From assembly GCA_964561495.1 (NCBI GenBank), contig CAZLPW010000005.1, positions 434-64,433 on the forward strand: 64,000 bases of DNA, in the 5' to 3' direction. A program made the translations under genes and the position numbers. This DNA is from an uncultured bacterium (GTDB lineage Bacteria; Fidelibacterota; Marinisomatia; Marinisomatales; UBA1611). A model generated the notes under the pieces. It had not been told where the DNA came from. It saw only the letters and a program-made list of their open reading frames with translations, and did no database searches. Of this stretch, positions 37,547-64,000 are shown in pieces (position 1 is the stretch's first letter; every line of letters begins with the position of its first letter).

Positions 37547-37643
37547 ACTTCGATCATGCTCTAATATTAAAGGATTCTAGGTACATATTTTTATTCTTTT
37601 AACCTCCAAACTTTTACATCTAGTGATTTATTTAAGATATCTT

Positions 37644-39119: not shown

Positions 39120-39128
39120 TATTCATCA

Positions 39129-43100: not shown

Positions 43101-43666
43101 TTCCACTCGCCCAACCACTTTGTTTCAAATCCAGTGGATGGCCAGCCGTTTAAAGGCCATGAACTAGGTAAATTCGATAAAGCTGGATACTCTCCAGTTT
43201 CATTAAAATATCCAAACGCGGGATAAAAACCCCACTCTACTGTACCAGTAGGATCAAGATCCATTTCCTCTCTGTAGCTAGTTTGTAGATAGTATAGAGT
43301 GTGACGTTCTTTATTAGGATCAAAAAGATCTAATGGATCAGTTATAGGAATGGTGTCCACTGTCCCTGCGTCTCCGTCATCTTCAATATATACCTTCGCG
43401 CCTACCAAGAGACCAATACCATCTGTCATTTTCAAACCATTAGGATTATTCGGCCATTTGGATACGTTTACCCTTGGCCAGTCAGAGAGTTCAGTTGTAT
43501 TTCTAAAATAAATATAAACTCTATTGCCTGTCATATAGCCCTCTTTCTCAGCAGCAATATCACCCGCTGGATCCTCTGGCCCCTGGTACTCTTTACCCTG
43601 CGAAAAAAGAAGATGCAAGGCAAGAAAAAACCAGGCCAATATTTTTACTAAATTTTTATTCAACAT
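40196..43666 (-). CDS. uncharacterised 1156-aa secreted protein with acidic Ca-binding-like repeats, an FN3-like domain and a variant CTD/FlgD-Ig-like tail
   Basis: A signal peptide without a lipobox Cys. DNDNDGLVDE and DADEDQDWQDGEDLNGDG repeats. FN3-like segment PEMPTITATAGDNKVILTWDD...RTYYYAVVAYD. The tail is VVPNPYV...RIKIFTVSGVLV...GMYIYHI...KFAVIK. Its ATG overlaps the receptor's stop (TAATG). Confidence 0.6.
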   Translation of the reverse strand: MLNKNLVKILAWFFLALHLLFSQGKEYQGPEDPAGDIAAEKEGYMTGNRVYIYFRNTTELSDWPRVNVSKWPNNPNGLKMTDGIGLLVGAKVYIEDDGDAGTVDTIPITDPLDLFDPNKERHTLYYLQTSYREEMDLDPTGTVEWGFYPAFGYFNETGEYPALSNLPSSWPLNGWPSTGFETKWLGEWNGRFGRGVTYADQESYYVVNDAQDQEYLGVEDDVKYYPRPGHYIGDIKPDVTIQPGAPWGGLGLRVSVRGFQWNNPQARDAIFWEYSIANISDYDLRDVAFGYWLDNSIGGDGDDDLGYFNKQIDMAYSWDINGIGAGGLPTGVMGFAYLESPGLAYDYRDNDNDGLVDEKRDNEATAIIGATEGIADLNAFLEFYKLNVEDLKDHWDADEDQDWQDGEDLNGDGIYQLSESYGDDIGIDGVGPGELNYNGPDLDGSECNHKPDFLEGVGCEPNFNTTDVSESDMVGLTAFRMFPIPSHAPSNETTWFKNDQAMWGVIGVDSLEEYVDNVSNLVEVFASGPFPLYQGRVERISMSELHSYDPLEGLSSADHTAPALYELKRIVQVIYEKDYRFAQPPEMPTITATAGDNKVILTWDDVADTKTRDPFVGNINDFEGYKIYRSTDKYMSDPEIITDGYGTPMFKKPIYQCDLVDGITGFTDFGLVNGMGYNLGTDNGISHIFVDNTVQNGRTYYYAVVAYDFGAPDIGPGIAPSENNAVIELDEAEEVRSVGKNVAVVVPHQRAAGYIPPSLDMIPSNLLGSGSVSPLIRAQGSLKQGHEYALTFLADKIETISGYEYGFQYVTNGIKVFDVTDSTVLVYSEDTSKYIGQNLVYRDTSDFWTLNPDRTIYTDVFDGLQIEINSDLEFPEYSIDSSRWINGYGNMRVTPTVEQALQLAWRYHIVFTDNDSAYVGIARSGTVRDENGSSIGSNKITEPAVNFYVQNTSFIDTATGQFPIMDLIVHDVNENGTFEIALDRIFVGATVGSRWRATAFIIDFQLDSALNYPEAGDVFQVDWRRPFFNTDTIRFTINKETELDADSVKIDMDSIKVVPNPYVMTNMMESAVANQFLNQRRRIMFTHIPADCRIKIFTVSGVLVDEIIVNNKPENGIIHWDMLTRENLEIAAGMYIYHIDSIETGKEKVGKFAVIK

Positions 43667-46446: not shown

Positions 46447-46508
46447 TTTGGAAAAATATTATTAAGGATTAGGTCAAAAGCTATATCAATAATCTACTAA
46501 GATTAAAA

Positions 46509-46538
46509 CAAAAAAAGAGGGGTAAATAAATACCCCTC
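46509..46538 (-). terminator. Rho-independent terminator downstream of the multi-CBM gene
   Basis: The minus strand reads GAGGGGTA-TTTATT-TACCCCTC followed by T7. Confidence 0.8.
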
Positions 46539-46557
46539 CTTCTTATTTTTCTTTATT

Positions 46558-49288: not shown

Positions 49289-50317
49289 TTGCGCACAACT
49301 CTTAAACACGTATCCGAAGATACTGGACTTTCCATCGCGACTGTATCCAGAGCTCTTCGTCGCAAACGAAGAAACTATTCCTCTAACGAAGAAAAAATCT
49401 ACGCATCAGCACGCAGACTGGGCTATCCATTTATAGGAAAAGATAAACACTCTGGTCAACTAACTATTGCCCTTGTGAGTGAGCTTTTTGGGGGAGAGTT
49501 CTATGCAAATTTTTTGCATGGGTTTTATAAAGCCAGTAAAAACACCTCCTCTGAGGTAGTAATCATTAACCTTGCAAAACATAGTGAAGACCCAATAGAG
49601 TATATTATAAGCTTAAGTAAGAAATATTCAGGAATCTGTCTTTTCCTTCCAAGCTTGGACAATAAAGATTATTTAAAAATAAAGGATGGGGTAGGCCAAT
49701 ATCCTATAGTTACACTCACTCCTATAAAAAATCCAAAGATTGACACAATCACATTTGACTCTTACGCTGGCGGATATATGATAGCCAAACACTTTGAAGA
49801 GCTTGGCTATAAAAATTTTGGTTTTATATCCGGCCCAAAGCATCCAATAATGGGCACATTTAAGCAACCACCTATAGATGCAATTTTTAGGAAAAATGGT
49901 TTTCTTGATCATATATCTGAAAATCCATCTCTCCAACTTGTCTGGACTTTTGATGGCGACTTTTCAAGCTCAACTGGTAGAGTTGCATTTGAAGACTTCA
50001 GCAAACGCAATCTAAATGATGTGGCTATTTTTGGCTGTAACGATGAAACGTGTTATGGGTTTATTAAAGGGGCAACAGAAAATGGTTACAAAGTACCCGA
50101 AGACTTCATTATAGCTGGATACGATAATCTTACATTCTCAGAAATAATAACTCCTGAGCTTACATCAATATATACTGATTTTTTTCTTTTAGGAAGTAAA
50201 GCGATTAAAATGATTGAAAACCTGATTGAGAACGAAAACGATAGCGTTGGCAATATAACTATGGTTCCTGTAAAGATTTTAAAACGAAAAAGTACAAATA
50301 TTCATACTTTGGACTAA
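49289..50317 (+). CDS. LacI-family transcriptional regulator (TTG start)
   Basis: HTH: LKHVSEDTGLSIATVSRALR. It is followed by a periplasmic-binding-protein-like sugar-sensor fold (IFGCNDETCYG, AGYDN). Confidence 0.88.
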   Translation: MRTTLKHVSEDTGLSIATVSRALRRKRRNYSSNEEKIYASARRLGYPFIGKDKHSGQLTIALVSELFGGEFYANFLHGFYKASKNTSSEVVIINLAKHSEDPIEYIISLSKKYSGICLFLPSLDNKDYLKIKDGVGQYPIVTLTPIKNPKIDTITFDSYAGGYMIAKHFEELGYKNFGFISGPKHPIMGTFKQPPIDAIFRKNGFLDHISENPSLQLVWTFDGDFSSSTGRVAFEDFSKRNLNDVAIFGCNDETCYGFIKGATENGYKVPEDFIIAGYDNLTFSEIITPELTSIYTDFFLLGSKAIKMIENLIENENDSVGNITMVPVKILKRKSTNIHTLD

Positions 50318-50335: not shown

Positions 50336-51616
50336 TTGATTAAAATTGCTTTCACCCTTATCCTATCTGCTATGATTTTTTGCTGTAAAAAAAATGATAA
50401 AGCACCTTCAGATGAATATAGAAAATTAGTTTGGCACGATGAATTTGATAAAAAAGATGTCAACCTGAATGAATGGACGTTTGACATTGGAACTGGAGCC
50501 CCCGAATTTGAGAATTATGGTACTAGCTCACCCAATTTTAAACCTGAAAATTTTCCCGCAGACAACTTTACCGTAAGATGGTCTGGTAAAATAAAAATTG
50601 ATCAGACATCCGACTACACTATTTATATTGTTTCTGATGATGGGGTGAGATTGTTTATTGATAAAAAACTAGTCATAGATAAGTGGACACCTCAACCAGC
50701 TACAGAATCTTTAGGGGAAATTTATCTAGAGGCAAATAAAACCTATCCCATAATTTTAGAATATTTTGAAGAATCTGGTGGAGAAGCATTAATACTAGGT
50801 TGGGAGTCAGAATTATTTGGGAAATGTCTCATTCCCAATAAAAATCTAATATCGGAAAACGGCCAGTCTGGCTTGACTGGCAGATATTTTCCTAACCAAA
50901 CCTTTGACTTTTCTGATTCTAGCAAAATTATAACTAGAATTGACTCAGTCCTAAATTGGGTTTCAGGTGTAGGCTGGGGAAACAATGAGCTCCAATACTA
51001 TACAAATTCAAGTGATAACGTGAGAATTGAAAATGGAAAATTAATTATCGAAGCTAAGAATCAATTGTACAAGGGCTCTGAATACACTTCATCAAGGATT
51101 AAAACTAAAAGTAGTTGGAAATATGGTAGATTTGAAATTTTTGCTCGTTTACCCCAAGGTAGAGGCACATGGGCAGCAGGTTGGGCTCTTCCTACGGACT
51201 GGGTATATGGGCCTTGGCCATTTAGTGGCGAGATTGATATTTTTGAACACGTTGGCCACGAACAAGATTTAATTGTAAGCTCGCTACATAATATTGCACA
51301 CTCTGGTGATGTGTCTAGGTCAGACCAACAAGGTAAAAGTCACCTTGAAAATGCATGTGATAGTTTTAACCTTTATGCACTAGAATGGGAAAAAGATAAA
51401 ATAAAAATATTTGTTAATAACCACCTTCAATTGGAATACAATAAAAATAATCAAGGATGGGAGCGCTGGCCTTTTGATCAACCTTTCCATCTGATATTTA
51501 ATATCGCCATAGGAGGATCATGGGGTGGATTAAAAGGGGTTGACAACAGTATTTTTCCTTCAAAAATGGAAATAGATTATATAAGAGTCTATGAAAAGAT
51601 AGCTGATGGTAGTTAA
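50336..51616 (+). CDS. PA14-domain GH16 laminarinase (exported, lipoprotein-like)
   Basis: PA14: FTVRWSGKIKIDQTSDYTIYIVSDDGVRLFID. GH16: GRFEIFARLPQGRGTWAAGWALP and the catalytic GEIDIFEH. Confidence 0.9.
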   Translation: MIKIAFTLILSAMIFCCKKNDKAPSDEYRKLVWHDEFDKKDVNLNEWTFDIGTGAPEFENYGTSSPNFKPENFPADNFTVRWSGKIKIDQTSDYTIYIVSDDGVRLFIDKKLVIDKWTPQPATESLGEIYLEANKTYPIILEYFEESGGEALILGWESELFGKCLIPNKNLISENGQSGLTGRYFPNQTFDFSDSSKIITRIDSVLNWVSGVGWGNNELQYYTNSSDNVRIENGKLIIEAKNQLYKGSEYTSSRIKTKSSWKYGRFEIFARLPQGRGTWAAGWALPTDWVYGPWPFSGEIDIFEHVGHEQDLIVSSLHNIAHSGDVSRSDQQGKSHLENACDSFNLYALEWEKDKIKIFVNNHLQLEYNKNNQGWERWPFDQPFHLIFNIAIGGSWGGLKGVDNSIFPSKMEIDYIRVYEKIADGS

Positions 51617-53264
51617 ATATTTAAGAAAAAATATTCTCCTCACAGTAGCTATATATTTCATTTTTATTAGCTGTGAAGATGCCAGCTATCAAGAAAAAAG
51701 AGCCTTGACCATATTTCAAGAGTCTCAGGCTTCGTGGGTAAAAAATTTTAATCCTCTTACCCCAGCTGGATCTGCTCGCTGGCCCACGTCTTCAGGAATC
51801 TATGAGCCACTTTTTATTTATAATTCGGTAAAAGCTGAGTATGTGCCCTGGCTCGGATTGGATTATAATTGGAACTCCGAAAATACGATTCTCTTTTTAA
51901 AAACGCGCTCAGGGGTAAAGTGGTCAGATGGAAAACCATTCACAGCAGAGGATGTGGCTTTTACATTTAATCTCAAAAAAATGCACGCTGGATTAGACAC
52001 TCGTGATTCATGGAGCTATTTAAAAGAAGTTAGAGCATTAAATGACTCAACGGTTAAATTTGAGTTTAAACGTGTATATGTTCCTGGATTTGATGATGTT
52101 GTAGGACAGCCAATTGTTGCCAAACACATTTGGAAAGACATCGAGGATCCATTAAAGTTCACAAATCCAGAACCTGTTGGGACAGGGCCTTTCACAGAAA
52201 TCTTACGTTTTGAAAGTCAGATATGGGAATTAGGAAAAAATCTAAATTATTGGCAAAGTGGTAAGCCAGAAATAGAAAAATTAAAGTTCCCCACCTTTCC
52301 TGGTAACGAGCAAGTGACATTAGCTTTGATCAGCGGAAAGTTAGACTGGGCTGGAGCATTTATTCCCGCAATTGATAGAGTCTTTGTTGAAAAAGATCCT
52401 GAAAATCATAAATATTGGTTTCCACAAACTGGACACACAACATTTTTTTATTTAAATACAAAACAATCTACGTTTAAAGATAAAAATGTTAGGAAAGCAA
52501 TCAGCTATGCAATTGACAGAGAGCTTGTTGTCAAAGTTGGAATGTACGACTACACGGTTCCTGCTCATGTGACTGGCGTTTCTGGACAAATGTCAAAATG
52601 GCACCCTCCTGACCTAGTAAAAAGAGAAAACTGGGTTAAGTATAATCCTAAAAAAGCCAATGAAATATTAGATGGCGTTGGTTTTTCCAAAAATAATTCT
52701 GGAATGAGAGAGACTCAAAATGGAGAAATTTTATCCTTCGATATTATAATTGTCAGTGGTTGGAGCGACTGGATAAGATCTGCCCAGATCATTAGTAAAA
52801 ATCTTGAAGAAATTGGAATTAAGGCAAAAGTAAAAACTTATGATTTTGGTGCATGGATAAGCAGAATGCAAAAGGGCGAATTTGATATGGCTATTGGATG
52901 GGCCGAAAAAGGTACTACGCCTTTCCCCTTGTACAAGGGTATGATGGCGTCTGAATACATAAAGCCAGTTGGAACAGTAGCAGATGGTAACTGGCATCGT
53001 TTTAACCATCCGTTGGCAGACTCTTTATTCAGAGAGTTTGAGAAAACCTCAGATAAAAATGAGATACAAGAGATTCTTTTTGGGTTGCAATATTTATTTA
53101 TTGATCAAGCTCCAGCAATACCTTTATTTGCAGAGGCATCTTGGGCCGAGTGTAATACCAAATATTTTACTAACTTTCCCAGTGAAAAAAATCCATATGC
53201 TACACTTTCACCAAATTATCCACCAGAAAATCTTTTTGTTTTAGTCAATCTAAAGAATAAATGA
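51606..53264 (+). CDS. ABC transporter substrate-binding lipoprotein, family 5 (Opp/Dpp type)
   Basis: Lipobox FISC and the typical SBP_bac_5 layout (VKWSDGKPFTAEDVAFTF...). Confidence 0.88.
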   Translation: MVVKYLRKNILLTVAIYFIFISCEDASYQEKRALTIFQESQASWVKNFNPLTPAGSARWPTSSGIYEPLFIYNSVKAEYVPWLGLDYNWNSENTILFLKTRSGVKWSDGKPFTAEDVAFTFNLKKMHAGLDTRDSWSYLKEVRALNDSTVKFEFKRVYVPGFDDVVGQPIVAKHIWKDIEDPLKFTNPEPVGTGPFTEILRFESQIWELGKNLNYWQSGKPEIEKLKFPTFPGNEQVTLALISGKLDWAGAFIPAIDRVFVEKDPENHKYWFPQTGHTTFFYLNTKQSTFKDKNVRKAISYAIDRELVVKVGMYDYTVPAHVTGVSGQMSKWHPPDLVKRENWVKYNPKKANEILDGVGFSKNNSGMRETQNGEILSFDIIIVSGWSDWIRSAQIISKNLEEIGIKAKVKTYDFGAWISRMQKGEFDMAIGWAEKGTTPFPLYKGMMASEYIKPVGTVADGNWHRFNHPLADSLFREFEKTSDKNEIQEILFGLQYLFIDQAPAIPLFAEASWAECNTKYFTNFPSEKNPYATLSPNYPPENLFVLVNLKNK

Positions 53265-54247
53265 ATCAATCTCTTATTTACTTAATCCGTAGACTGGGCT
53301 TTTATTTGTTAGCAGGTTGGGCCGCGATTACTCTAAACTTTTTTATACCAAGGTTAATGCCTGGTGACCCGGCATCAATTATTTTTGCAAGGTTTAGAGG
53401 AAAATTAAAACCTGAAGCAATGAACGCGCTTAGAGAAACCTTCGGTCTCACTGATGAACCATTAATAGGACAATATTGGACATATCTAAAAAGCATATTA
53501 CAAGGTGATTTGGGTATATCTATTGCCTACTTCCCAGAGCCAGTAACAAGCGTAATAGCCTCTGGGCTTTCATGGACTATTTTTCTTGCTGGTACTTCAT
53601 TAATAATCTCTTTTGCAATTGGAACTTTCTTAGGAATTCTGATTGCTTGGAACAGAGGCGGAAAGCTGGACTCGATTTTACCCCCATCTCTGGCATTCAT
53701 AGGCGCATTCCCTTATTTTTGGCTTGCAATGGTTTTTTTGTATTTGTTTGGTTTTAAGCTTGGCTGGTTTCCTTTGGGACATTCATATAGTGACAGTGTA
53801 ACACCTGGCTTAAATATCCAATTTATATTGAGCGCAATCTACCACGCCATACTACCAGCTTTGACTATGATTTTAGTTAGTATTGGAGGATGGATGTTGT
53901 CAATGAGAAACACAATGATTGCCACGTTAGGGGCAGACTATATTAACTTTGCAAGAGCTAAAGGGTTACGATCAAGATTGATAATGCTTAGGTATGCGGC
54001 TCGAAACGCTATACTACCAAATTTTACTGGTTTTGGCATGGCGCTAGGCTTTGTTTTGAGTGGTGCATTGTTAACTGAAATTATTTTTTCATATCCAGGA
54101 CAAGGCTATCTGCTACTCCAAGCAGTTACATCACAGGACTTTCCTCTGATGCAAGGCGTTTTTATGACGATAACTTTTACAGTTTTAGCAGCAAATTGGC
54201 TTGTAGATATTGCAATTCTTTTTTTAGATCCAAGGACTCGAAGCTAG
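53261..54247 (+). CDS. ABC transporter permease (OppB/DppB type)
   Basis: RLGFYLLAGWAAITLNFFIPRLMPGDP, with the EAA-loop region ARAKGLRSRLIMLRYAARNA. Confidence 0.9.
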   Translation: MNQSLIYLIRRLGFYLLAGWAAITLNFFIPRLMPGDPASIIFARFRGKLKPEAMNALRETFGLTDEPLIGQYWTYLKSILQGDLGISIAYFPEPVTSVIASGLSWTIFLAGTSLIISFAIGTFLGILIAWNRGGKLDSILPPSLAFIGAFPYFWLAMVFLYLFGFKLGWFPLGHSYSDSVTPGLNIQFILSAIYHAILPALTMILVSIGGWMLSMRNTMIATLGADYINFARAKGLRSRLIMLRYAARNAILPNFTGFGMALGFVLSGALLTEIIFSYPGQGYLLLQAVTSQDFPLMQGVFMTITFTVLAANWLVDIAILFLDPRTRS

Positions 54248-54251
54248 CACG

Positions 54252-55184
54252 ATGATGATTTACAATAATGATAGTATTTTATACAGATGGGTTAGAGGGG
54301 TTTTAGCAAATAAAAAGGCTATTTTAGGAACTTCCCTTGTAGGCTTTTTTATTTTTTTTTCAATATTTGGTCAGTTATTTACAAAAGATCCTACTGCATT
54401 TTTAAGCACTCCGCTTTCGCCACCATCCACAGATTATTGGTTTGGGACAAACGGACAAGGCCAAGACGTCTTTGCGCAAACAATAGCTGGTAGCCGACAA
54501 ACTTTATTCGTTGGATTTACTACTGGTTTTTTGGTTGTAATTATTGGGTCTTTGATAGGAGGAATTTCTGGTTATTATGGAGGTCGCATAGATGATATTC
54601 TTTCTTTATTAATAAATATTTTTTTAGTAATGCCAGGCCTACCTCTAATGGTTATTCTCGCAAGTTGGTTGCCATCAGGCCCACTCACGCTTATAGGAGT
54701 ATTATCTCTAACTGGTTGGGCATGGAATGCTCGGGTTATTCGTTCCCAGATGATGGCGTTTAAAAATCGTGACTTCGTTTCTGCTGCAATTATTAGCGGA
54801 GAAAGAAATATAAGAATCATAGTTGTTGAGATTATGCCAAGAATGTTATCCCTAATTGCTTCATCCTTCATAGGGGCTACTATTTATTCAATAGGGGCCC
54901 AAGTTGCACTAGAGTTTTTGGGTCTTGGTGATGTTAGCACTGTAACATGGGGTAATAATTTATATTGGGCCAGTAATGATCTCGCACTCCTCACTGGCTC
55001 TTGGTGGACTTTTGTTCCGACAGGCTTGAGCGTTGCGATTATTAGTTTCTCATTAACACTTATAAATTTTGGTATTGATGAGGTCACTAATCCTAGGCTT
55101 ATTTCGGAGCGAATCTGGAAAGAAAAAATTTCAAATAATGATACCATTGACGGTGTTACTCCTGTTAGAAAAATAAATGAGTAA
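54252..55184 (+). CDS. ABC transporter permease (OppC/DppC type)
   Basis: YWFGTNGQGQDVFAQ and the AAIISGERNIRII loop. Confidence 0.9.
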   Translation: MMIYNNDSILYRWVRGVLANKKAILGTSLVGFFIFFSIFGQLFTKDPTAFLSTPLSPPSTDYWFGTNGQGQDVFAQTIAGSRQTLFVGFTTGFLVVIIGSLIGGISGYYGGRIDDILSLLINIFLVMPGLPLMVILASWLPSGPLTLIGVLSLTGWAWNARVIRSQMMAFKNRDFVSAAIISGERNIRIIVVEIMPRMLSLIASSFIGATIYSIGAQVALEFLGLGDVSTVTWGNNLYWASNDLALLTGSWWTFVPTGLSVAIISFSLTLINFGIDEVTNPRLISERIWKEKISNNDTIDGVTPVRKINE

Positions 55185-56814
55185 TTCTATTATATCAGTT
55201 CAAAACCTTTGCGTTAGTTACATAACAAAAGACAGCCCTATTGAGGCTGTGAAAAACGTCTCCTTTGATATTAAAAAAGGAGAGATTTTTGGTCTTGTAG
55301 GTGAATCAGGTAGCGGGAAAAGTACCGTTGTGCAAGCTCTTCTTAGAACTCTCCCACCACCAGGGGTAATTTCAGGAGGCCATGCGTTTTTCAATGAAAA
55401 AGATATTTTTGAATCAACATATGATCAGGTATTGAATTTTCGTTGGAAAGAAATATCTATTGTACTTCAGAGTGCTTTAAATGCATTAAACCCTGTACTT
55501 AAAATTCGAGACCAGATAAAAGATGTGCTTGAGATTCATACAGATATTTCGGAAGATGATATAGATAAGCGCATAAATGAGCTTCTATTACTAGTCGATA
55601 TAGATGCAACTAGATTAGATAGCTATCCGCATCAACTTTCTGGAGGAATGAAACAACGCATTGTGCTTGCAATTGCCCTGGCTCTCATGCCTCCTGTAAT
55701 AATAATGGATGAACCAACTACCGCTTTAGATGTAATTGTTGAGAGAGCTATACTATCTAAGATTATTGATCTAAGAAAAGAGCTGGGCTTTACAATTTTA
55801 TTTATTACTCACGATCTAAATCTTTTATTAGAGTTTGCCAACCGTCTTGCCGTTATGAAAGATGGTAAAATAATAGACCTCGATACTGCACAAAATATAA
55901 AAAATGGAGGCTCTCATCAATATACCGAAAAACTCATTGGTTCCTTGCCCTCTGCCTCGGGTCCAAGGAAAAAAGGACTCCTGTCAAAACCAAAAGAAAA
56001 GATTATTAAAGAAAATCCATTCCTAGAAGTTGTTAACCTTTCAAAAAGCTTTGCTGTATCTGGTTTTTTCAAACCCCAAATGCTTGACGCAGTAAAAGAT
56101 GTGAACTTCAGAATATATCCTGGAGAAATTTTAGGACTAGTAGGTGAGTCTGGTAGCGGGAAAAGTACTATTGGAAAGTTGGTTACAAGGCTTATAAGGC
56201 CAACAGATGGAATTATTAGGATGAATGGGAAAGATATACTGAGTTCTAAAGCAAAAAAAGTTTCGCTTGATTATAGGAGAAGGGTTCAGATGGTATTCCA
56301 AGATCCTTTTAGCTCTTTAAACTCAATACATACTATCTATCATCACCTCTCTCGACCTTTAATTAGACATAGAATAAAAACAGATTCAGAAATGTATGAT
56401 TATGTAATTTATTTATTAGAATCAGTAGGTTTGATTCCAGGTGAGAATTTTGCAACCAAATTTCCGCATGAAATGTCAGGCGGAGAGAGACAACGAGTTG
56501 CAATAGCAAGGGCATTAAGCCTTGGCCCTGAGTTAATTGTCGCTGATGAACCGACTTCAATGCTTGACGTATCAATCAGGATGGAAATTCTTGAAATTTT
56601 TGCTCAAATGCGTATCAAAAAAAATCTGGCAATTATTTTCATTACTCATGATCTCGCATCTGCAAGATACCTAGCTGATAGAATCATTGTATTACAAAAT
56701 GGTCAAATTGTTGAAAAAGGTGCCTCCGAAGAACTTATTCAATCTCCGCAAACTAAATACACAAAACAATTAGTTAAGGCTGCATCCCCTGGCTGGCTAA
56801 AAAATAAAAAATGA
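55177..56814 (+). CDS. fused double ATP-binding protein (OppD-OppF type) of the ABC importer
   Basis: It has two Walker A motifs (GESGSGKST twice), two signature motifs (LSGGMKQR and MSGGERQR) and two Walker B motifs (IIMDEPT and IVADEPT). Confidence 0.92.
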   Translation: MSNSIISVQNLCVSYITKDSPIEAVKNVSFDIKKGEIFGLVGESGSGKSTVVQALLRTLPPPGVISGGHAFFNEKDIFESTYDQVLNFRWKEISIVLQSALNALNPVLKIRDQIKDVLEIHTDISEDDIDKRINELLLLVDIDATRLDSYPHQLSGGMKQRIVLAIALALMPPVIIMDEPTTALDVIVERAILSKIIDLRKELGFTILFITHDLNLLLEFANRLAVMKDGKIIDLDTAQNIKNGGSHQYTEKLIGSLPSASGPRKKGLLSKPKEKIIKENPFLEVVNLSKSFAVSGFFKPQMLDAVKDVNFRIYPGEILGLVGESGSGKSTIGKLVTRLIRPTDGIIRMNGKDILSSKAKKVSLDYRRRVQMVFQDPFSSLNSIHTIYHHLSRPLIRHRIKTDSEMYDYVIYLLESVGLIPGENFATKFPHEMSGGERQRVAIARALSLGPELIVADEPTSMLDVSIRMEILEIFAQMRIKKNLAIIFITHDLASARYLADRIIVLQNGQIVEKGASEELIQSPQTKYTKQLVKAASPGWLKNKK

Positions 56815-58184
56815 TAGAAAATAATGACAAATTCCCTAAAAACTTTATTTGGGGGACCGCAACCTCTAGCTACCAGATAGAAGGAGCATTTGATACTGAT
56901 GGGAAAGGTACTTCGGTCTGGGATACACATAGCCACACTAAAGGAAAAATTAAAAATAATGATACTGGTGATATAGCATGTAACCATTATTCCCTTTGGG
57001 AAGAAGATTGTAAACTATTAAATAATCTAGGTGTTAGCGCATATCGCTTTTCAACAAGCTGGCCAAGAATTTTTCCAAAAGGCATCGAAAGCAAGCCAAA
57101 TATGTTAGGACTAGATTTTTATAGCAGAATAGTGGATACACTTCTGGAGAATGATATTTTACCTTTTCTAACATTAAACCACTGGGATATTCCTCAAGGG
57201 ATTGAAGACTTAGGAGGTTGGCCTAATAGAAATGTTATAGATTATTATCTGGAATATGCTTATTCGCTTTCCAAACATTTAGGTGACCGTGTTAAAAACT
57301 GGATCACTCATAATGAGCCGTGGTGCATAAGCTACAAAGGCTATATTGAGGGTGACTTCCCGCCTGGATTAAAGGACAATTGGTCAAAAAGCATCGCAAC
57401 AACACATCATTTATTACTATCTCATGGTATGGCCATACCAGAAATTAAAAGTAACTCTAAAGAAGCTCAGGTTGGCATAACGCTTAACCTTACTCCTGCT
57501 GTTCCAGCATCTATGAGCACATATGATATTGATGAGTGTAATAGATTTGATGGAGTATTTAATCGGATGTACCTTGATCCATTATTTAAAAAATCATATC
57601 CGAAAGATATTCTTGATTGGCTAATGGAAGACAATCTAATTAAAAAATCTGATGTTGATATTTTAACTGATCAGGATTTGCAAATTATAGGCACAGATGC
57701 AGATTTTTTAGGAGTTAATTATTATAGTAGAGCAATTATAAGAAATAAAAATATTTCCAAAGAAAAAAATCTTCCTGTCGAAATTAAATCCTCAGAGAAA
57801 ACAGATTTTGGATGGGAAGTTCACCCTGAGAGCTTTTATAAATTACTTATTAGAATAAAGAATGATTATTCATTAAAAAAAATATACATTACCGAAAACG
57901 GATGCTCCTATAAGAATGGACCTGACAAAAATAAAATCATTAACGATGATAAACGAATTGATTACCATAGTTCGCACCTATTATCATTGAAAAAAGCTAT
58001 AGACAATGGAGTACCTTGCGATGGGTATTTCGCATGGTCATTGATGGATAATTTTGAGTGGTGCGAAGGTTTTCAACAACGCTTTGGTCTTATCTGGGTT
58101 GACTTTAATTCATTAGAGCGTATTCCTAAAAAAAGTTTTTTCTGGTATAAAAATCTTATTAATAAAAATGGAGTAGAAAAGTAA
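56811..58184 (+). CDS. GH1 beta-glucosidase (cytoplasmic)
   Basis: FIWGTATSSYQIEGA, acid/base THNEPW and nucleophile YITENG. No signal peptide. Confidence 0.95.
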   Translation: MIENNDKFPKNFIWGTATSSYQIEGAFDTDGKGTSVWDTHSHTKGKIKNNDTGDIACNHYSLWEEDCKLLNNLGVSAYRFSTSWPRIFPKGIESKPNMLGLDFYSRIVDTLLENDILPFLTLNHWDIPQGIEDLGGWPNRNVIDYYLEYAYSLSKHLGDRVKNWITHNEPWCISYKGYIEGDFPPGLKDNWSKSIATTHHLLLSHGMAIPEIKSNSKEAQVGITLNLTPAVPASMSTYDIDECNRFDGVFNRMYLDPLFKKSYPKDILDWLMEDNLIKKSDVDILTDQDLQIIGTDADFLGVNYYSRAIIRNKNISKEKNLPVEIKSSEKTDFGWEVHPESFYKLLIRIKNDYSLKKIYITENGCSYKNGPDKNKIINDDKRIDYHSSHLLSLKKAIDNGVPCDGYFAWSLMDNFEWCEGFQQRFGLIWVDFNSLERIPKKSFFWYKNLINKNGVEK

Positions 58185-58187: not shown

Positions 58188-59543
58188 ATGGACAAAAATA
58201 TATCAATTTCCATTACAGCAAAAGATACCAATCAGAGGTTAAAAGATATAGACCCCAAACAATTAACATTTTCCAATGATCATCAATTGCCTACCCTTAA
58301 AATAGATAGCAAACAAAAAAAACAGAGCATCTTAGGTTTTGGAGGAGCCTTTACTGAAGCATCCGCATATGTGTACAGTCAGCTTAATGATGACAAAAAA
58401 AATGAAATTATTAGTGCCTATTTTGGTGAAAATGGTAACCAATATAATTTTGCGCGGACTCATATTAATAGCTGTGATTTTTCTCTTGGAAACTATGCTT
58501 ATTCTGAAGAACCTGGTGATGTTGAATTAAATAATTTTTCTATATCTAGAGATAGAAAATGGCTTATTCCATTTATTAAATCATGCGTTAAACTCGCAAA
58601 AGATCCAGTTTTTATTTTAGCTTCTCCATGGAGCCCTCCAGCGTGGATGAAAACAAATGGTGAAATGAATAATGGAGGAAAACTGATTAATGAATACCAA
58701 AACACTTGGGCAGAGTATTATTGTAAATACATTTTTGAATACGAAAAAGAAGGAATCGATATTTGGGGTATCTCAGTACAGAATGAGCCAATGGCAAAGC
58801 AAACATGGGACTCCTGTATTTATACTTCTGAAGAAGAACGAGATTTTATTAAACATTATTTAGGGCCTGCTTTAGAAAAAAATAATCTAATGCAAAAAAA
58901 ACTAGTAATATGGGATCATAATAGAGATATAATGGTCGAAAGAGCCTCTACTATTTTAAATGATGAAAAGGCATCAAAATATGTATGGGGAACTGGGTTT
59001 CATTGGTACAACGGAGACCACTTTGAGGCCGTCCAAGAAGTTCACGATAAATTTCCAGATAAGAATTTAATTTTCACTGAAGGCTGTCAAGAAAATGGTC
59101 CGCATATTGGATCATGGGCATTAGGTGAACGCTATGCAACTTCAATAATTAATGATTTAAACCGGTGGACAGTAGCCTGGATCGATTGGAATCTTATTTT
59201 AAATGAAAAAGGTGGGCCAAACCATGTAGAGAATCTTTGTAGTGCTCCCATCATTGTAGATACAAAAAAACAGGATATTTTATACCAAAGTTCTTACTAT
59301 TACTTAGGTCATTTTTCTCGATTTATTAAACGCGGAGATAGAATAATTACAACAGATTTGAACAGTCATGATTTGCTTGCATTATCATCTATAGATAGCA
59401 AAGGAACTATAAATACTATTGTTATGAATAAAAAAGAAAAAGCTCTTGGTTTTAAATATTTCAGTGAAAAAAAAAATAAGAATTTTTTACTGCCTCCAAG
59501 ATCAATAATTACCATATCGGAATCAAACTCAGATAATAATTAA
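58188..59543 (+). CDS. GH30 glycosidase (glucosylceramidase / beta-1,6-glucanase family), no signal peptide
   Basis: ILGFGGAFTEASAY, ASPWSPPAWMKTNG, GISVQNEP and LIFTEGC. Confidence 0.88.
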   Translation: MDKNISISITAKDTNQRLKDIDPKQLTFSNDHQLPTLKIDSKQKKQSILGFGGAFTEASAYVYSQLNDDKKNEIISAYFGENGNQYNFARTHINSCDFSLGNYAYSEEPGDVELNNFSISRDRKWLIPFIKSCVKLAKDPVFILASPWSPPAWMKTNGEMNNGGKLINEYQNTWAEYYCKYIFEYEKEGIDIWGISVQNEPMAKQTWDSCIYTSEEERDFIKHYLGPALEKNNLMQKKLVIWDHNRDIMVERASTILNDEKASKYVWGTGFHWYNGDHFEAVQEVHDKFPDKNLIFTEGCQENGPHIGSWALGERYATSIINDLNRWTVAWIDWNLILNEKGGPNHVENLCSAPIIVDTKKQDILYQSSYYYLGHFSRFIKRGDRIITTDLNSHDLLALSSIDSKGTINTIVMNKKEKALGFKYFSEKKNKNFLLPPRSIITISESNSDNN

Positions 59544-59563: not shown

Positions 59564-62500
59564 GTGACCGAATCTTCTCTATATAAAATTTCCGATTTCC
59601 ATCTTATGGATCCATTCTTAATGACCATCACTAGCGGTGGGGACCATTGGATGTATATATCAAGCACAGGCTGCCTTACAGCTGGGAGAAGCAAAGCAGA
59701 GTTCGCACTCTTCCCTTATGTTACTGATGATATACTTCATAGAAATAACAGTTTTACTGGCCCGATTACGATAGTCAGAGTAAGAAAAAAGAATCAACAA
59801 TTAATTTGGGAACCATTCGCAAAGAACACCAATGCATATAATATTATTCGAAATCTTTATAAAAATAGTATTGGTAACGTAATTATTTTTGAAGAAATCA
59901 ATAAAGATCTTGGACTTACTTTTTCCTACCAATGGCAATCCAACTCTGAACAAGGCTTTATAAGAAAATCTCTAATTACCAATCAAAGCAAGAAACAAAT
60001 CGATTTGGATATTCTTGACGGCCTGATGAATATATTACCTGCAGGTATAGAACTTCGAACTACCCAAGAAATGAATAATCTTGCAAATGCATACAAAGTG
60101 ACGGAGTATTTACCTAAAAATAAATGCTCACTCTATTATCTTAATTCATTAATCATGGACAGACCCCAGCCTGGAGAATCATTAAGAGCTAATATCGTAT
60201 CATACTATTCAAATAACAACCCTGAAATATCTGTTTGTGAAAAGGAAATAAACAATTTTAGAGAAAATGGAAAATTCAAAAAAAAATACCACGTTACTGG
60301 TAGACCTGGCTATTTGTTAACTAAATCTAGGTTTAGATTAGAATCTAAAAAAGGGTCAGAGTGGTATTTTTTCGCAGATGTAAATAAAACCCAAAGTCAA
60401 ATTACTCATATAACTAATTGGCTTAAAAACAGCCAAAACATAATCCAGGATGTTGAAAAAGGAATAATTAATAATAATGATAAATTAGTTTTTGCCTTAG
60501 CATCTGCTGATGCTTTTCAACAGACTCGGTCAAATATAAATAATCTACATCATACTGCGAATGTCCTGTTTAATGTTTTAAGAGGCGGGATATTTAATAA
60601 TCAATATGAAATAAATATATCTGATTTTATAAATAATCTTAAAATTAGAAATAAAAAAATATATGAAAACTTTAAGAAAAAATTACCTCTAAATAATAGC
60701 ACCCTTGAGTTGAATGAGTTGATTCATTTTTCAGATAAAACAAAAGATCCTTCGATGATGAGATTATGTCGTGAATATTTACCTCTTACACTAAGCCGCC
60801 GTCATGGTGACCCAAGTAGACCTTGGAATAGATTTGAAATAAAAACAAAAGATGAAAACAATAATGATTTGTTTTACTATGAAGGCAACTGGCGAGATAT
60901 CTTTCAAAACTGGGAGGCTCTAGGTTTAAGCTTCCCTTTAGCAATTGAATCAATGATAGCTAAATTTGTAAACGCAACATCGGTAGATGGTTATAACCCT
61001 TATCGAATAAATAGTGATGGAATAGATTGGGAAGTTAGTGACCCAGATGATCCCTGGAGCTATATAGGCTATTGGAATGATCATCAAATTATTTATTTAC
61101 AAAAACTACTAGAACATTTAAACAACTATGACCATAAAAAATTAAATCAAATTTTTTCTCAAGAAATTTATTCATATGCTAATATCCCGTACAGGTTACG
61201 AACATTTGATAAAATTATATCTAACCCTAAAGAAACTATTGATTTTGACTACGAAAAAAATAAAAAAATATTAGAATCTGTCGAGTCTTACGGTACAGAC
61301 ATAAAACTCATTCAAAATAATAGAGGAAATGTATACCATGTAAATCTTTGCGAAAAATTACTCGTTTTGACGCTTGCTAAGTTCTCAAGCCTTGTTCCAG
61401 ATGGTGGAATTTGGCTAAACACACAAAGGCCCGAGTGGAACGATGCCAATAACGCTTTGGTAGGTTACGGAGCTTCAATGGTAACCGTATATTATTTAAG
61501 AAGATTTCTCAATTTTTTTCAAAATATTTTAAATCAAACTGATATTAAGTCCATATCTATATCTCAAGATGTCAAGGAATGGCTTTTTGAAATAAACGAT
61601 ATATTAATAGAAATAAAGAAAGAACAAAATCTTGGAAAATTGAATGATCAAGATAGAATGAAATTTGTTATAGCGCTAGGAGAATCATTCTCAACTTATA
61701 GATCTAGAGTTTATGACAAAATTTTTAGTAAAAAAGATACATTAAAAACAAAAAAAATATACGAATTCTTAACGCTTGGTAAAAACATATTGAACGATAC
61801 TATAGACTCTAATGAAAAAAAGGGGCTATTTAATGCATATAACATAATAGACTTTAATAAATCCAAAAATAAAGCCCAAATTAATGAACTGGGTATTATG
61901 CTGGAGGGACAAGTTTCTGCTTTAAGTTCTGGAAAATTATCTTTGAATAAAACTATAAAAACAATCAACGCTATATATGATAGTAAACTCTACAGAAAAG
62001 ATCAGAAAAGTTTTATCCTGTATCCCAAAAAAGAATTAATATCATTTCTTGATAAAAACATAATTCCCAATTCTCTTTTTATAAAATGTGCAGTATTAAA
62101 ACAACTGGTTAATTCTGGTGATACTAGGATTATACATAAAGACGTAAAAAACAATCTCCGATTTAATTCAGATTTAATAAATACCCATGTCTTAGAAGAT
62201 TCTTTAAATGAACTAAGAACAACAGATTCTAAGTTTAAAAAATTATCTGATACTGAGTATAAAAGGATACTCGATATTTATGAAACAGTATTTAATCATA
62301 AATACTATACAGGTAGATCTGGTACAATGTTTTCATACGAGGGCATTGGCTCAATTTACTGGCACATGGTTGCTAAACTACTTCTTAGTGTACAAGAGAA
62401 CTACTATTATTTTCATAAACATAGCTCAAACAAACAAAAACTTACTACCCTAGGAAACCTATATTATAAAATAAGAGATGGTCTAAGTTCATCAAAAACA

Positions 62501-62968
62501 CCAAATCAATATGGAGCATTTCCGTTTGACCCTTATTCTCATTCGCCCTCACACTCAGGAGCGCAGCAACCAGGGATGACAGGACAGGTAAAAGAAGAAA
62601 TCCTAACACGATTTGGTGAGCTTGGATGTTTTATAAGAAAACGTGTGATTGTTTTTTCGCCAATTTTACTAAAAAAATCAGAATTTTTGTTTAAGTCTAA
62701 AATTTTTAATTATTATAACGTTTTCAATAATAAATCAGATTTAAAAGTCAAAAAAAACCAACTCGCTTTTACATTTAATCAAGTCCCAATTATTTATGAT
62801 ATTAATCATCAAATTAAAGACGAAATAAGAATAGAATATTTAAGTGGTGAAACAAAATTACTCCGCGGTTCTAAAATTAATTTTGAAATAAGTAAAGAGA
62901 TTTTTAGTAGGAGAGGAAATATTACGAGTATTAAATATTTATTCAATAAAAAACTTTTAAACTTTTAA
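59564..62968 (+). CDS. 1134-aa cytoplasmic protein; putative GH94/GH149/GH161-clan glycoside phosphorylase (beta-1,3-glucan/laminarioligosaccharide phosphorylase candidate)
   Basis: GTG start and no signal peptide. Motifs: RRHGDPSRPWNRF, NWRDIFQNWE, GYWNDHQIIY and TQRPEWNDANNAL. The last resembles the DWND catalytic-Asp region I recall from GH94 phosphorylases. Its size and laminarin-locus context fit bacterial GH149. The family call is from memory and has not been searched. Confidence 0.45.
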   Translation: MTESSLYKISDFHLMDPFLMTITSGGDHWMYISSTGCLTAGRSKAEFALFPYVTDDILHRNNSFTGPITIVRVRKKNQQLIWEPFAKNTNAYNIIRNLYKNSIGNVIIFEEINKDLGLTFSYQWQSNSEQGFIRKSLITNQSKKQIDLDILDGLMNILPAGIELRTTQEMNNLANAYKVTEYLPKNKCSLYYLNSLIMDRPQPGESLRANIVSYYSNNNPEISVCEKEINNFRENGKFKKKYHVTGRPGYLLTKSRFRLESKKGSEWYFFADVNKTQSQITHITNWLKNSQNIIQDVEKGIINNNDKLVFALASADAFQQTRSNINNLHHTANVLFNVLRGGIFNNQYEINISDFINNLKIRNKKIYENFKKKLPLNNSTLELNELIHFSDKTKDPSMMRLCREYLPLTLSRRHGDPSRPWNRFEIKTKDENNNDLFYYEGNWRDIFQNWEALGLSFPLAIESMIAKFVNATSVDGYNPYRINSDGIDWEVSDPDDPWSYIGYWNDHQIIYLQKLLEHLNNYDHKKLNQIFSQEIYSYANIPYRLRTFDKIISNPKETIDFDYEKNKKILESVESYGTDIKLIQNNRGNVYHVNLCEKLLVLTLAKFSSLVPDGGIWLNTQRPEWNDANNALVGYGASMVTVYYLRRFLNFFQNILNQTDIKSISISQDVKEWLFEINDILIEIKKEQNLGKLNDQDRMKFVIALGESFSTYRSRVYDKIFSKKDTLKTKKIYEFLTLGKNILNDTIDSNEKKGLFNAYNIIDFNKSKNKAQINELGIMLEGQVSALSSGKLSLNKTIKTINAIYDSKLYRKDQKSFILYPKKELISFLDKNIIPNSLFIKCAVLKQLVNSGDTRIIHKDVKNNLRFNSDLINTHVLEDSLNELRTTDSKFKKLSDTEYKRILDIYETVFNHKYYTGRSGTMFSYEGIGSIYWHMVAKLLLSVQENYYYFHKHSSNKQKLTTLGNLYYKIRDGLSSSKTPNQYGAFPFDPYSHSPSHSGAQQPGMTGQVKEEILTRFGELGCFIRKRVIVFSPILLKKSEFLFKSKIFNYYNVFNNKSDLKVKKNQLAFTFNQVPIIYDINHQIKDEIRIEYLSGETKLLRGSKINFEISKEIFSRRGNITSIKYLFNKKLLNF

Positions 62969-62977: not shown

Positions 62978-64000
62978 ATGTTAGATATTAAAATAAAAAA
63001 TTTCCATATTTTTTTAAAACTGATCTTGGTTACAGTTTATTTGAATGCTTCAGATCTGTTGAAAGTCAAAAATCAAGTAATCTTAAATAAAGAAAATCAA
63101 CCAGTGTTTTTAAAAGGGTGTAACCTAGGTAATTGGCTAATTCTTGAAATGTGGATGCTTGACTATGCAGGACGAGGTATTCATGATCAAAAACATTTCA
63201 TAGAAATATTGGAAAATAGGTTTGGCATTGTTAAAGCAAATCAATTGATGGAAGTATACAGAAATAATTGGATTACTGAAAAAGATCTAGACATAATTAA
63301 ATCTTTTGGGATGAATACTTTGAGACTTCCATTTGATTACAAAATTTTAATGGACTCAGATCTAAAGCCATTTAAACTAAAAAAAGATGCCTGGAAATGG
63401 ATTGACCATACAATAAACATGGCTCGAAAAAGAGATATGTATGTTATCCTTGATATGCACGGAGCTCCAGGTCGTCAAAGTGGCATGGATCATTCAGGAG
63501 AAGTGGATTATAATAAGCTTTGGGATAGCAAACTATATCAAGAGCAAACGGTTTGGCTTTGGAGACAAATCTCAGATCGTTATAGAAATGATAAAACCGT
63601 CGCAGCCTATGACCTGCTTAATGAGCCTTGGGGAAGTAGTGAAAAAAATCTCAAAAACATAATCCTTAGGATATACAAAGAAATAAGAAAAAATGATGAT
63701 GAACACATAATTGTTTTCCCTGGTCACAGAAGCGGAATAGATTTTTATGAAAATATACGCTCAATCAGATTAGAAAATATAATATACACTATGCACTTTT
63801 ATCCTGGCCTCTTTGGTGGTGGCCCTCCTACTATTTATACACACACTGATTTTATTCAAAATGTAATCCCGTTATGGGAAGAAAAAATGAGACAGTTTGA
63901 TTCACCACTTTTGATTGGAGAGTTTAATGTTGTCTTTAAATCTGCTGGAGCTGGTGAAATGATGCGCCGTTATTTTGATATATACTCTAGTAATCACTGG
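62978..64000 (+). CDS. GH5 beta-glucanase, exported; the 3' end lies beyond the window
   Basis: Not in the ORF track because no stop lies in the window. The frame is open from ATG 62978, which is preceded by AGAGGA. MNTLRLPFDY, ILDMHGAPGRQSG, acid/base AYDLLNEPW and nucleophile LLIGEFN. Confidence 0.85.
   Translation, partial: MLDIKIKNFHIFLKLILVTVYLNASDLLKVKNQVILNKENQPVFLKGCNLGNWLILEMWMLDYAGRGIHDQKHFIEILENRFGIVKANQLMEVYRNNWITEKDLDIIKSFGMNTLRLPFDYKILMDSDLKPFKLKKDAWKWIDHTINMARKRDMYVILDMHGAPGRQSGMDHSGEVDYNKLWDSKLYQEQTVWLWRQISDRYRNDKTVAAYDLLNEPWGSSEKNLKNIILRIYKEIRKNDDEHIIVFPGHRSGIDFYENIRSIRLENIIYTMHFYPGLFGGGPPTIYTHTDFIQNVIPLWEEKMRQFDSPLLIGEFNVVFKSAGAGEMMRRYFDIYSSNHW

Follow-up and report, generated by a model that had tools for sequence, protein, structure and literature searches.

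Characterised GH149 enzymes and their gene clusters

GH149 enzymes reversibly cleave beta-1,3-gluco-oligosaccharides of DP 2 or more with phosphate, which yields alpha-Glc-1-P, and glucose can serve as the acceptor; the bacterial enzymes are cytoplasmic, and sugar transporters and beta-glucan hydrolases are encoded along with them. Two GH149 enzymes have been characterised, Pro_7066 and EgP1, which are 45% identical to each other and are both beta-1,3-glucan phosphorylases (PMC5827456). Pro_7066 is thought to be flavobacterial, and its structure has been solved (PMC6771811). EgP1 is the enzyme of Euglena gracilis; by the description in these papers it has the same conserved active-site residues as the protein analysed here, but it is eukaryotic, has a predicted target peptide and prefers short acceptors (PMC5827456). 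The relationship of GH149 to GH94 is at the clan level only (PMC6771811). The GH161 enzymes (PapP; PDB 9QQK/9SR2, 9H8V) also belong to clan GH-Q and use the same catalytic logic, but they are shorter (~1040 aa) and unable to cleave laminaribiose (PMC6484121). Among the bacterial gene clusters, those of Type I, found in Proteobacteria such as Vibrio, consist of genes for a LacI regulator, a COG0747/family-5 binding protein, two Opp-type permeases, one or more ATPases and the GH149 enzyme (PMC5827456, Fig. 7A). The published Type I clusters encode neither a laminarinase that acts outside the cell nor a transporter of the outer membrane (PMC5827456).

The gene described here is present in the window, the 64,000-nucleotide stretch of DNA that was analysed, which comes from an uncultured low-GC marine bacterium with T9SS-tagged proteins. 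The gene very probably encodes a cytoplasmic, inverting beta-1,3-glucan (laminaridextrin) phosphorylase of family GH149, clan GH-Q, that acts in a laminarin pathway.

Organisation of the locus

The operon and the divergent cluster next to it contain the following features.

33256..49029, - strand: divergent outer-membrane/secretion module (domain scans and N-termini)
49289..50317, + strand: LacI-family regulator, first gene of the operon (Pfam Peripla_BP_3/LacI; NCBIfam LacI-family models)
50336..51616, + strand: PA14-GH16 endo-beta-glucanase with a lipoprotein-like signal peptide (Pfam PA14, Glyco_hydro_16; N-terminus LIKIAFTLILSAMIFCC)
51606..56814, + strand: Opp-type ABC importer, comprising a family-5 binding protein (51606-53264), two permeases and a fused ATPase with two ABC domains (Pfam SBP_bac_5, BPD_transp_1 x2, ABC_tran x2)
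56811..58184, + strand: GH1 beta-glucosidase without a signal peptide (TIGR03356, 547 bits against a cut-off of 478.5)
58188..59543, + strand: GH30 enzyme without a signal peptide (Pfam Glyco_hydro_30, 295 bits)
59564..62968, + strand: GH149 gene, a single ORF with a GTG start, stop codon included, encoding 1134 aa (ORF listing)
62978..64000, + strand: GH5 enzyme, the last gene of the operon within the window, signal peptide present (Pfam Cellulase)

The gaps between the operon genes were -11 to +20 nt, and their order (LacI, PA14-GH16, binding protein, two permeases, ATPase, GH1, GH30, GH149, GH5) was kept in L001, the locus of a relative, and on identical marine metagenome contigs. The GH5 gene extends beyond the end of the window and encodes 615 aa on contig L081. 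The divergent module contains genes for a CBM9/CBM4_9 T9SS protein, a TonB-dependent receptor, a PorV-like protein, two GH16 enzymes and a GH5-CBM6 protein, together with exported proteins of 1156 aa and 491 aa without annotation, for which PDB sequence searches gave no match. Adjacency and the common class of substrate suggest that this module is tied to the phosphorylase. The T9SS sorting domains, together with the PorV-like protein, suggest that the bacterium belongs to the FCB group. A polyphosphate kinase 2 gene and alpha-glucan genes were observed elsewhere in the window.

The core of the operon (LacI, COG0747 binding protein, permeases and ATPase domains) corresponds to that of the Type I clusters, which have the same type of transporter. 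Compared with the Type I clusters, the operon has the additional PA14-GH16, GH1, GH30 and GH5 genes, the two ATPases are fused as one 545-aa protein, and the locus adjoins genes for a TonB-dependent receptor and T9SS-secreted GH16 and GH5 enzymes. Features of Type I are thus joined in the window locus with others that are Type II/PUL-like. The joining of T9SS GH16/GH5 enzymes, a TonB-dependent receptor and two unannotated exported proteins to an Opp-type importer and cytoplasmic GH30, GH149 and GH1 enzymes is outside the three cluster types described for GH149.

Gene neighbourhoods were counted in 54 related loci from many phyla, each with at least 15 kb of sequence. Within 10 kb of the GH149 gene, GH16 was present in 35 of the 54 loci and GH1 in 19, and 44 loci had at least one of GH1, GH30 and GH16. 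The occurrence of bacterial GH149 genes with GH16 and GH30 in laminarin-type clusters, which the initial annotation had noted, agrees with the published description (PMC5827456).

Scans of positions 49000-64000 for promoters and terminators gave no more hits than chance would (62 where 63.4 were expected and 8 where 8.7 were expected, respectively). The divergent intergenic region harboured one palindrome only (49189-49220), which is AT-rich and 74-79% complementary, and no operator in this region can be claimed from it. An Rfam scan of the window gave no match at gathering thresholds and so no RNA marker for taxonomy, and no phosphoglucomutase gene was present among the window ORFs scanned.

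Start codon and localisation of the GH149 protein

The ORF and the four motifs quoted in the initial annotation were found as described. The motifs are located at aa 412-424, 442-451, 502-517 and 620-636 (60797-60835, 60887-60916, 61067-61114 and 61421-61471). The GTG start at 59564 is supported by comparison with the protein of L001 (72% identical), because an ATG is present there at the equivalent codon and residues 4-14 are kept (SS[LF]YKISDFHL). Public metagenome gene calls on identical DNA place the start later, giving proteins of 1115 or 1120 aa. An exact-sequence look-up with the 1134-aa protein returned no match, because these public calls begin at later ATGs; the same look-up with the neighbouring GH30 protein identified four contigs with identical DNA. 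The correction of the start is useful, as the public gene calls shorten the GH149 protein by 14-19 residues.

The highest Kyte-Doolittle value of a 12-residue window within residues 1-40 was 0.98, compared with 2.3-3.0 for the exported neighbours, and the highest value of a 19-residue window over the full length was 1.34. By this simple measure the protein has neither a signal peptide nor a membrane helix, as had been stated for the signal peptide. It had also been called the largest cytoplasmic protein of the locus; it is the largest without an export signal, but the exported 1156-aa ORF nearby (40196-43666, - strand) is larger.

Assignment to family GH149

The protein matched the NCBIfam equivalog model NF058639.1 ("1,3-beta-D-glucan phosphorylase, GH149 family") with 1442 bits against a cut-off of 1150, and the alignment covered residues 3-1124 of the protein and positions 14-1130 of the 1134 in the model. 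In a sequence search of the PDB, Pro_7066 (6HQ6) was matched over the full length with E = 2e-300 and 1002 bits. When the protein was aligned to Pro_7066 (6HQ6/6HQ8), identity was 43.4% across 1113 columns and there were 11 gap columns. The proposal that the protein belongs to the GH94/GH149/GH161 clan was therefore borne out and narrowed to GH149; the likeness to the phosphorylase clan on which it depended is present in the equivalog profile and, by sequence, in the solved structure.

A Pfam scan of the protein detected neither GH94 domains nor any other family at E up to 10. Family GH149 is evidently without a Pfam model, so this result does not count against the assignment, which is decided by the NCBIfam and PDB matches. 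Only three PDB chains were found at E up to 10, namely 6HQ6 (GH149), 9QQK (named as GH161) and 9H8V, which was deposited as a 'cellobiose phosphorylase' and scored 80 bits, equal to 9QQK. The matches to 9QQK and 9H8V were limited to three local stretches, in the N-terminal domain, the RHGD/NxRD region and the region from GYWxDH to WxDA, with 80 bits in total compared with 1002 for GH149, and membership of GH161 was rejected. Membership of GH94 was also rejected, from the Pfam result and the limitation of the PDB matches to these three chains.

Pro_7066 is the closest characterised enzyme, at 43% identity. Since Pro_7066 and EgP1 have the same function at a similar distance from each other, the function would also be retained in the query.

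Domains and active site

Domain limits and active-site residues were taken from the Pro_7066 structure paper (PMC6771811) and transferred by alignment, and the invariance of residues was counted over 82 aligned family sequences.

59564..60391, + strand: N-terminal beta-sandwich domain, aa 1-276 (Pro_7066 31-303; 42% identity, 1 gap)
60392..60505, + strand: helical linker, aa 277-314 (alignment to Pro_7066)
60506..62623, + strand: (alpha/alpha)6 catalytic domain, aa 315-1020, with both GH149-specific inserts inside (core segments 46-55% identical to Pro_7066)
60590..60772, + strand: GH149-specific insert Dom1, aa 343-403 (Pro_7066 370-428; query side ungapped)
60893..60898, + strand: RD motif R444-D445, sugar 1-phosphate recognition (Pro_7066 R470-D471; invariant in 82/82)
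61436..61444, + strand: WND catalytic-loop motif W625-N626-D627 (Pro_7066 W651-N652-D653; invariant in 82/82)
62039..62302, + strand: GH149-specific insert Dom2, aa 826-913 (Pro_7066 852-938; ungapped)
62339..62365, + strand: E926 (donor-sugar hydroxyl contacts) to H934 (phosphate recognition) (Pro_7066 E951 and H959; both invariant in 82/82)
62624..62965, + strand: C-terminal jelly-roll domain, aa 1021-1134 (alignment to Pro_7066)

The protein is collinear with Pro_7066 over the full length (1134 compared with ~1156 aa), with the same domain order, identical WND, RD, Glu and His residues and, like Pro_7066, no targeting peptide (PMC5827456, PMC6771811). In the sequence alignment to the solved structure all domains of Pro_7066, including Dom2 and Dom1, which was defined as a domain in PMC6771811, aligned with three gap positions or fewer each. 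D627, equivalent to D653 of Pro_7066, is predicted to be the catalytic Asp; the initial annotation had correctly recognised the WND region as the one that holds this residue (PMC6771811).

The conservation of these residues also bears on whether the protein might be a hydrolase instead of a phosphorylase, or a family remnant that is inactive or only binds. Some families of phosphorylases, GH65 among them, include hydrolases (PMC8626586). However, the protein keeps His934, the RD motif and the catalytic Asp, the frame of 1134 codons is unbroken and conserved with L001, and no GH149 hydrolase is described in the papers on the family cited here (PMC5827456, PMC6771811, PMC6484121). The probability of such a loss or change of activity is considered negligible.

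Divergence of the sequence

In the family tree, the query and L001 formed the longest internal branch, with a stem of 0.375 compared with a median of 0.026. The median identity of the query to the other family sequences was 40.8%, the lowest in the set. The content of FYMINK residues was 40.7% in the query, compared with a median of 18.9%, and the composition was more AT-driven than that of Pro_7066. The long branch coincides with this extreme AT-driven amino acid composition, which appears to explain much of the divergence. In the neighbour-joining tree, the query and L001 were sister to Pro_7066 and L026; this placement may be a compositional attraction, because AT-richness is common to all four sequences.

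The surface oligosaccharide-binding site of Pro_7066 was mostly replaced in the query. Y968 alone among its eight residues is identical, K1037 is conservatively changed and the other six differ (E990N, E994K, Y841K, K831Y, E838K and E982K). Conservation of this site is low in most of the GH149 family. The GYWGDH motif of Pro_7066 is GYWNDH in the query, with N505 where 79 of 81 family members have Gly. GH161 carries Ser at this position, which therefore tolerates change. With the surface site mostly lost and the motif altered, the chain-length preference could differ from that of Pro_7066.

Among the proteins of the operon, GH149 was the least conserved between the window and L001 (72%, compared with 76-94% for the others). 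This, the branch common only to these two sequences, the replaced surface site and N505 might indicate a GH149-fold phosphorylase with another preferred substrate (beta-1,6-branched, mixed-linkage, or a different chain-length window), forming a functional subfamily of its own. GH94, a related family, holds several substrate specificities. Within GH149, EgP1 and Pro_7066 are already unlike in their chain-length preference (PMC5827456). Such a change of substrate is nevertheless judged distinctly improbable, as the score is above the curated equivalog cut-off, every residue of the donor (-1) subsite and of the phosphate site is invariant, and the family alignment has no indels near the active site. 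Moreover, the composition explains much of the divergence, the surface site has low conservation in the family anyway, the N505 position tolerates change, and the operon context is that of a classic laminarin locus.

The initial annotation had raised the possibility of a new subfamily. This was rejected as unsupported, since the equivalog cut-off was passed, no domain was gained or lost, no domain-level indels were found and the catalytic residues were all kept, while the long branch is confounded by composition. A reading in which the pair formed by the window and L001 would be a functionally distinct GH149 lineage serving a hybrid laminarin pathway is improbable; in it, acceptor or branch tolerance might be different, given that the Pro_7066 surface site is absent and N505 is substituted. 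By its sequence, the protein of 1134 residues fits GH149, a known family, as a typical member.

Proposed role in laminarin degradation

The most likely role predicted for the GH149 protein is the phosphorolysis of imported laminari-oligosaccharides to glucose 1-phosphate. Outside the cell, laminarin would be cut by the GH16 and GH5 enzymes with T9SS tags or lipoprotein signals, and the fragments would pass the outer membrane probably via the adjacent TonB-dependent receptor. They would then be captured by the family-5 binding protein and imported by the Opp-type ABC transporter; the operon would presumably be controlled by the LacI-family regulator. In the cytoplasm, the GH30 enzyme would strip the beta-1,6 branches, the GH149 enzyme would phosphorolyse the linear beta-1,3 chains, and the GH1 enzyme would hydrolyse the remaining disaccharides. 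The closest NCBIfam model to the GH30 protein was an endo-1,6-beta-glucanase (244 bits, under its cut-off), and the enzyme probably removes branches as a beta-1,6-glucosidase or glucanase.

In the proposed reaction, inorganic phosphate would attack the beta-1,3-glucosyl unit at the non-reducing end, and the general acid would be D627 of the WND loop. This would yield alpha-D-glucose 1-phosphate and a chain shorter by one unit, down to glucose. Glucose 1-phosphate would enter glycolysis via a phosphoglucomutase, for which no gene was present among the scanned ORFs of the window, and each glucosyl unit would cost one ATP less than by hydrolysis and subsequent glucokinase.

In vitro the reaction runs freely in both directions, and Pro_7066 and EgP1 produce chains up to ~DP 12 (PMC5827456). 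This, together with the polyphosphate kinase 2 and alpha-glucan genes in the window, might suggest an enzyme that is mainly synthetic in vivo and uses glucose 1-phosphate to build up a beta-1,3-glucan reserve inside the cell. That direction is very improbable, as the layout is catabolic: the same operon encodes an importer, endoglucanases that are secreted, a beta-glucosidase and a repressor of the LacI type. High cytoplasmic phosphate also normally favours phosphorolysis. Bacterial GH149 clusters have themselves been interpreted as degradative (PMC5827456).

Publications of 2018-2019 already described the GH149 family together with its mechanism, structure and association with laminarin loci, and proteins of this kind receive their name automatically from the curated NCBI model. 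The protein of the window therefore adds a data point rather than a concept; in practice it is of use mainly to enzyme-engineering panels, as a sequence that is divergent and AT-rich. Laminarin makes up a major part of the carbon in the sea, and ATP is conserved when it is broken down by phosphorolysis. A record of the uncultured lineages with GH149 thus refines models of the consumers of algal storage glucan and of their efficiency.

Family assignment and active site

The predicted 1134-aa protein was compared with profile and structure databases. The initial annotation had proposed a beta-1,3-glucan phosphorylase candidate of the GH94/GH149/GH161 clan and a family-profile search as the check. 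In a profile search with NCBIfam models, the protein passed the GH149 equivalog model NF058639.1 ("1,3-beta-D-glucan phosphorylase, GH149 family") at 1442 bits (curated cut-off, 1150), its residues 3-1124 aligning with positions 14-1130 of the 1134 in the model. A Pfam scan of the protein gave no match. The best PDB match (E = 2e-300, one collinear stretch) was 6HQ6/6HQ8, the bacterial beta-1,3-oligosaccharide phosphorylase Pro_7066, with 483 of 1113 columns identical (43.4%) and just 11 gap columns, counted on a Pro_7066 chain rebuilt from the printed PDB-search alignments. As this crystal structure is collinear and 43% identical, the fold is settled. The GH161 structures 9QQK and 9H8V matched only in three short local stretches, totalling 80 bits. 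By sequence comparison, the protein is therefore a GH149 member, tied to GH161 and GH94 at clan level only, which is the kinship described in the GH149 and GH161 papers.

In Pro_7066, the catalytic loop carries W651-N652-D653, of which D653 is predicted to be catalytic; R470-D471 recognises the sugar 1-phosphate, E951 contacts a donor-mimicking ligand and H959 recognises phosphate (PMC6771811; PDB chain index = native number + 19). Through the alignment these correspond to W625-N626-D627, R444-D445, E926 and H934. All seven residues were invariant among the protein, Pro_7066 and 80 relatives drawn from species-representative genomes, and that the protein is a hydrolase or an inactive remnant is scarcely credible. 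The four motifs quoted in the initial annotation were all found, and every structural domain of Pro_7066 could be aligned, with at most 3 gap positions each.

Motifs and domains of the GH149 protein (domains from the alignment to Pro_7066)
Residues 1-276: N-terminal beta-sandwich
Residues 277-314: helical linker
[quoted passage not shown]
Residues 412-424: motif RRHGDPSRPWNRF
Residues 442-451: motif NWRDIFQNWE
Residues 502-517: motif GYWNDHQIIYLQKLLE
Residues 620-636: motif TQRPEWNDANNALVGYG
Residues 826-913: Dom2 insert, GH149-specific
Residues 1021-1134: C-terminal jelly roll

Start codon and localisation

The gene (59564..62968, +) was confirmed as a single ORF of 1134 codons with a GTG start, and has a G+C content of 30% (window, 34%). 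On public marine metagenome contigs with identical DNA (L081-L083), it is called from later ATGs as 1115 or 1120 aa (alternative starts within 59564-59620 of the window; 11419-11434 on the contigs), which accounts for the lack of any entry when the 1134-aa sequence was looked up exactly. In the closest relative locus (L001), an ATG occupies the very codon of the GTG, residues 4-14 are kept between the two despite nucleotide differences, and similarity to Pro_7066 and the NCBIfam model sets in at residues 3-5. The coordinates of the initial annotation, starting at 59564, are therefore better than the public calls, which, judging from these comparisons, are probably 14-19 residues too short. The absence of a signal peptide was likewise upheld, as the highest 12-residue Kyte-Doolittle mean at the N-terminus was 0.98, compared with 2.3-3.0 in exported proteins of the locus. 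No segment of the whole protein reached transmembrane-like hydrophobicity.

Genomic context

The GH149 gene is the ninth of ten plus-strand genes spaced by -11 to +20 nt, a run separated from a divergent cluster by a 259-nt intergenic region. The gene order was the same in L001 and on the identical metagenome contigs.

Genes of the operon and the divergent cluster
33256-49029 (-): divergent secreted beta-glucan cluster
49289-50317 (+): LacI-family regulator, no export signal
50336-51616 (+): PA14-GH16, lipoprotein-like signal
51606-53264 (+): family-5 solute-binding protein, signal
53261-54247 and 54252-55184 (+): two permeases, membrane
55177-56814 (+): fused double ABC ATPase, 545 aa, two ABC domains, no export signal
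56811-58184 (+): GH1 beta-glucosidase, TIGR03356 above cut-off, no export signal
58188-59543 (+): GH30, no export signal
59564-62968 (+): GH149, no export signal
62978 to beyond the window end (+): GH5, signal peptide

The minus-strand cluster encodes a CBM9/CBM4_9 protein with a T9SS sorting domain, a TonB-dependent receptor with CarboxypepD_reg, a PorV-like protein, two GH16 enzymes (one with a T9SS tail) and a GH5-CBM6 enzyme with a T9SS tail. The T9SS-tagged enzymes (C-terminal sorting domains occur on three proteins of the cluster), the PorV-like protein and the receptor suggest an FCB-group organism. The cluster also encodes two exported proteins, one of 491 aa with a lipoprotein-like N-terminus (37644-39119, -) and one of 1156 aa with a signal peptide (40196-43666, -), neither of which had a Pfam or PDB sequence match. 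Since they are located between the receptor and the T9SS-tagged GH16 enzymes, they could serve the receptor as glycan-binding partners at the cell surface. Promoter and terminator scans of the region were at chance level. The divergent intergenic region contains an AT-rich, imperfect palindrome (49189-49220; 74-79% complementary), at best a weak candidate operator for the LacI-family regulator.

Among 54 related loci from many phyla, each represented by 15 kb or more of sequence, GH16 was encoded less than 10 kb from GH149 in 35 and GH1 in 19. At least one of GH1, GH30 and GH16 lay within 10 kb in 44 of the 54, and thus the association with beta-glucan breakdown is a property of the family. 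An anabolic role for the enzyme is very improbable.

Elsewhere in the window, an alpha-glucan-related group upstream (26474-33200) comprises a CotH-LTD protein with a T9SS tail, two GH13 alpha-amylase-family genes and CBM48/AMPK-CBM proteins. A second CotH/LTD/T9SS protein (1190 aa) is encoded just past the window end, at 16680-20252 of the identical contig L081. The Rfam scan of the 64-kb window returned no family, tRNA included, at gathering score.

Other genes of the window
5250-6728: glycerol kinase
13373-14710: class-2 photolyase
22402-23202: polyphosphate kinase 2

Sequence divergence

The protein and its L001 counterpart were the most divergent of the set (median identity with the remaining sequences 40.8%, where 48% is typical) and, in a midpoint-rooted neighbour-joining tree, occupied the longest internal branch (stem 0.375; median 0.026). 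F, Y, M, I, N and K together accounted for 40.7% of residues (family median, 18.9%). The pair clustered with Pro_7066 and L026, the other two AT-rich sequences, a grouping that may reflect compositional attraction. The initial annotation had raised a possible new subfamily; this was unsupported, given that the equivalog threshold was passed, that domain-level insertions or deletions were absent and that the composition is extreme. The two characterised GH149 enzymes, Pro_7066 and EgP1 of Euglena gracilis, are 45% identical and share the same activity (PMC5827456), and so a 43% distance alone is no argument for a new function.

Altered substrate or chain-length specificity, although unlikely, is the sole rival of the three with any supporting observations. 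These are the long branch; a GH149 protein that differs more between the window and L001 than any other operon product (72% identity; the other nine, 76-94%); one unusual change in a conserved motif; and the loss of a surface site. The motif GYWGDH reads GYWNDH (residues 502-507, window 61067-61084), and its Gly was found in 79 of 81 sequences, with Asn (N505) in this protein and L001 only. The site has Ser in GH161, and therefore tolerates change. Pro_7066 has a remote surface site for oligosaccharide binding, which was not kept here, as of its 8 residues only Y968 is identical and K1037 conservative; in members with less than about 60% identity this site is reported to be poorly conserved (PMC6771811), and it was weakly kept across the whole alignment of 82 sequences.

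Proposed mechanism and comparison with known clusters

Beyond the established family membership, catalytic residues, domain set, absent export signal and operon composition, the mechanism proposed is drawn by analogy from characterised GH149 members and from what is established for inverting phosphorylases of clan GH-Q. Laminarin would be cut outside the cell by secreted or surface GH16 and GH5, and the fragments would cross the outer membrane via the TonB-dependent receptor and be imported by the Opp-type ABC system. GH30 would then take off beta-1,6 branches, and GH149 would phosphorolyse the linear chains, with GH1 clearing leftover disaccharides. Phosphate would attack the non-reducing-end beta-1,3 linkage with D627 as general acid, yielding alpha-glucose 1-phosphate and a shortened chain, and continuing down to glucose. 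Phosphorolysis saves ATP, as phosphoglucomutase is used in place of glucokinase, and the saving put forward in the initial annotation would have this basis in general biochemistry. Of the window ORFs that were scanned, none was recognised as a phosphoglucomutase gene.

The GH149 family dates from 2018 (PMC5827456), and its structure followed in 2019 (PMC6771811); its occurrence in laminarin loci has been published, and it is regularly counted in marine metagenome studies. The core of LacI regulator, COG0747-type binding protein, Opp-type permeases and ATPases and GH149 corresponds to the Type I cluster of PMC5827456, whose transporter was likened by the authors to the Thermotoga laminarin-oligosaccharide importer. 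Type I clusters have neither an extracellular laminarinase nor an outer-membrane transporter (PMC5827456), whereas the window has both, with GH16/GH5 in the operon and the TonB-dependent receptor in the adjoining minus-strand cluster. They are also described with two separate ATP-binding proteins in place of the single fused 545-aa ATPase. This hybrid layout departs modestly from the cluster types already published. Proteins of this kind are named automatically by the curated NCBI model, and the protein described here is an uncharacterised, rather divergent GH149 member from an uncultured marine bacterium.
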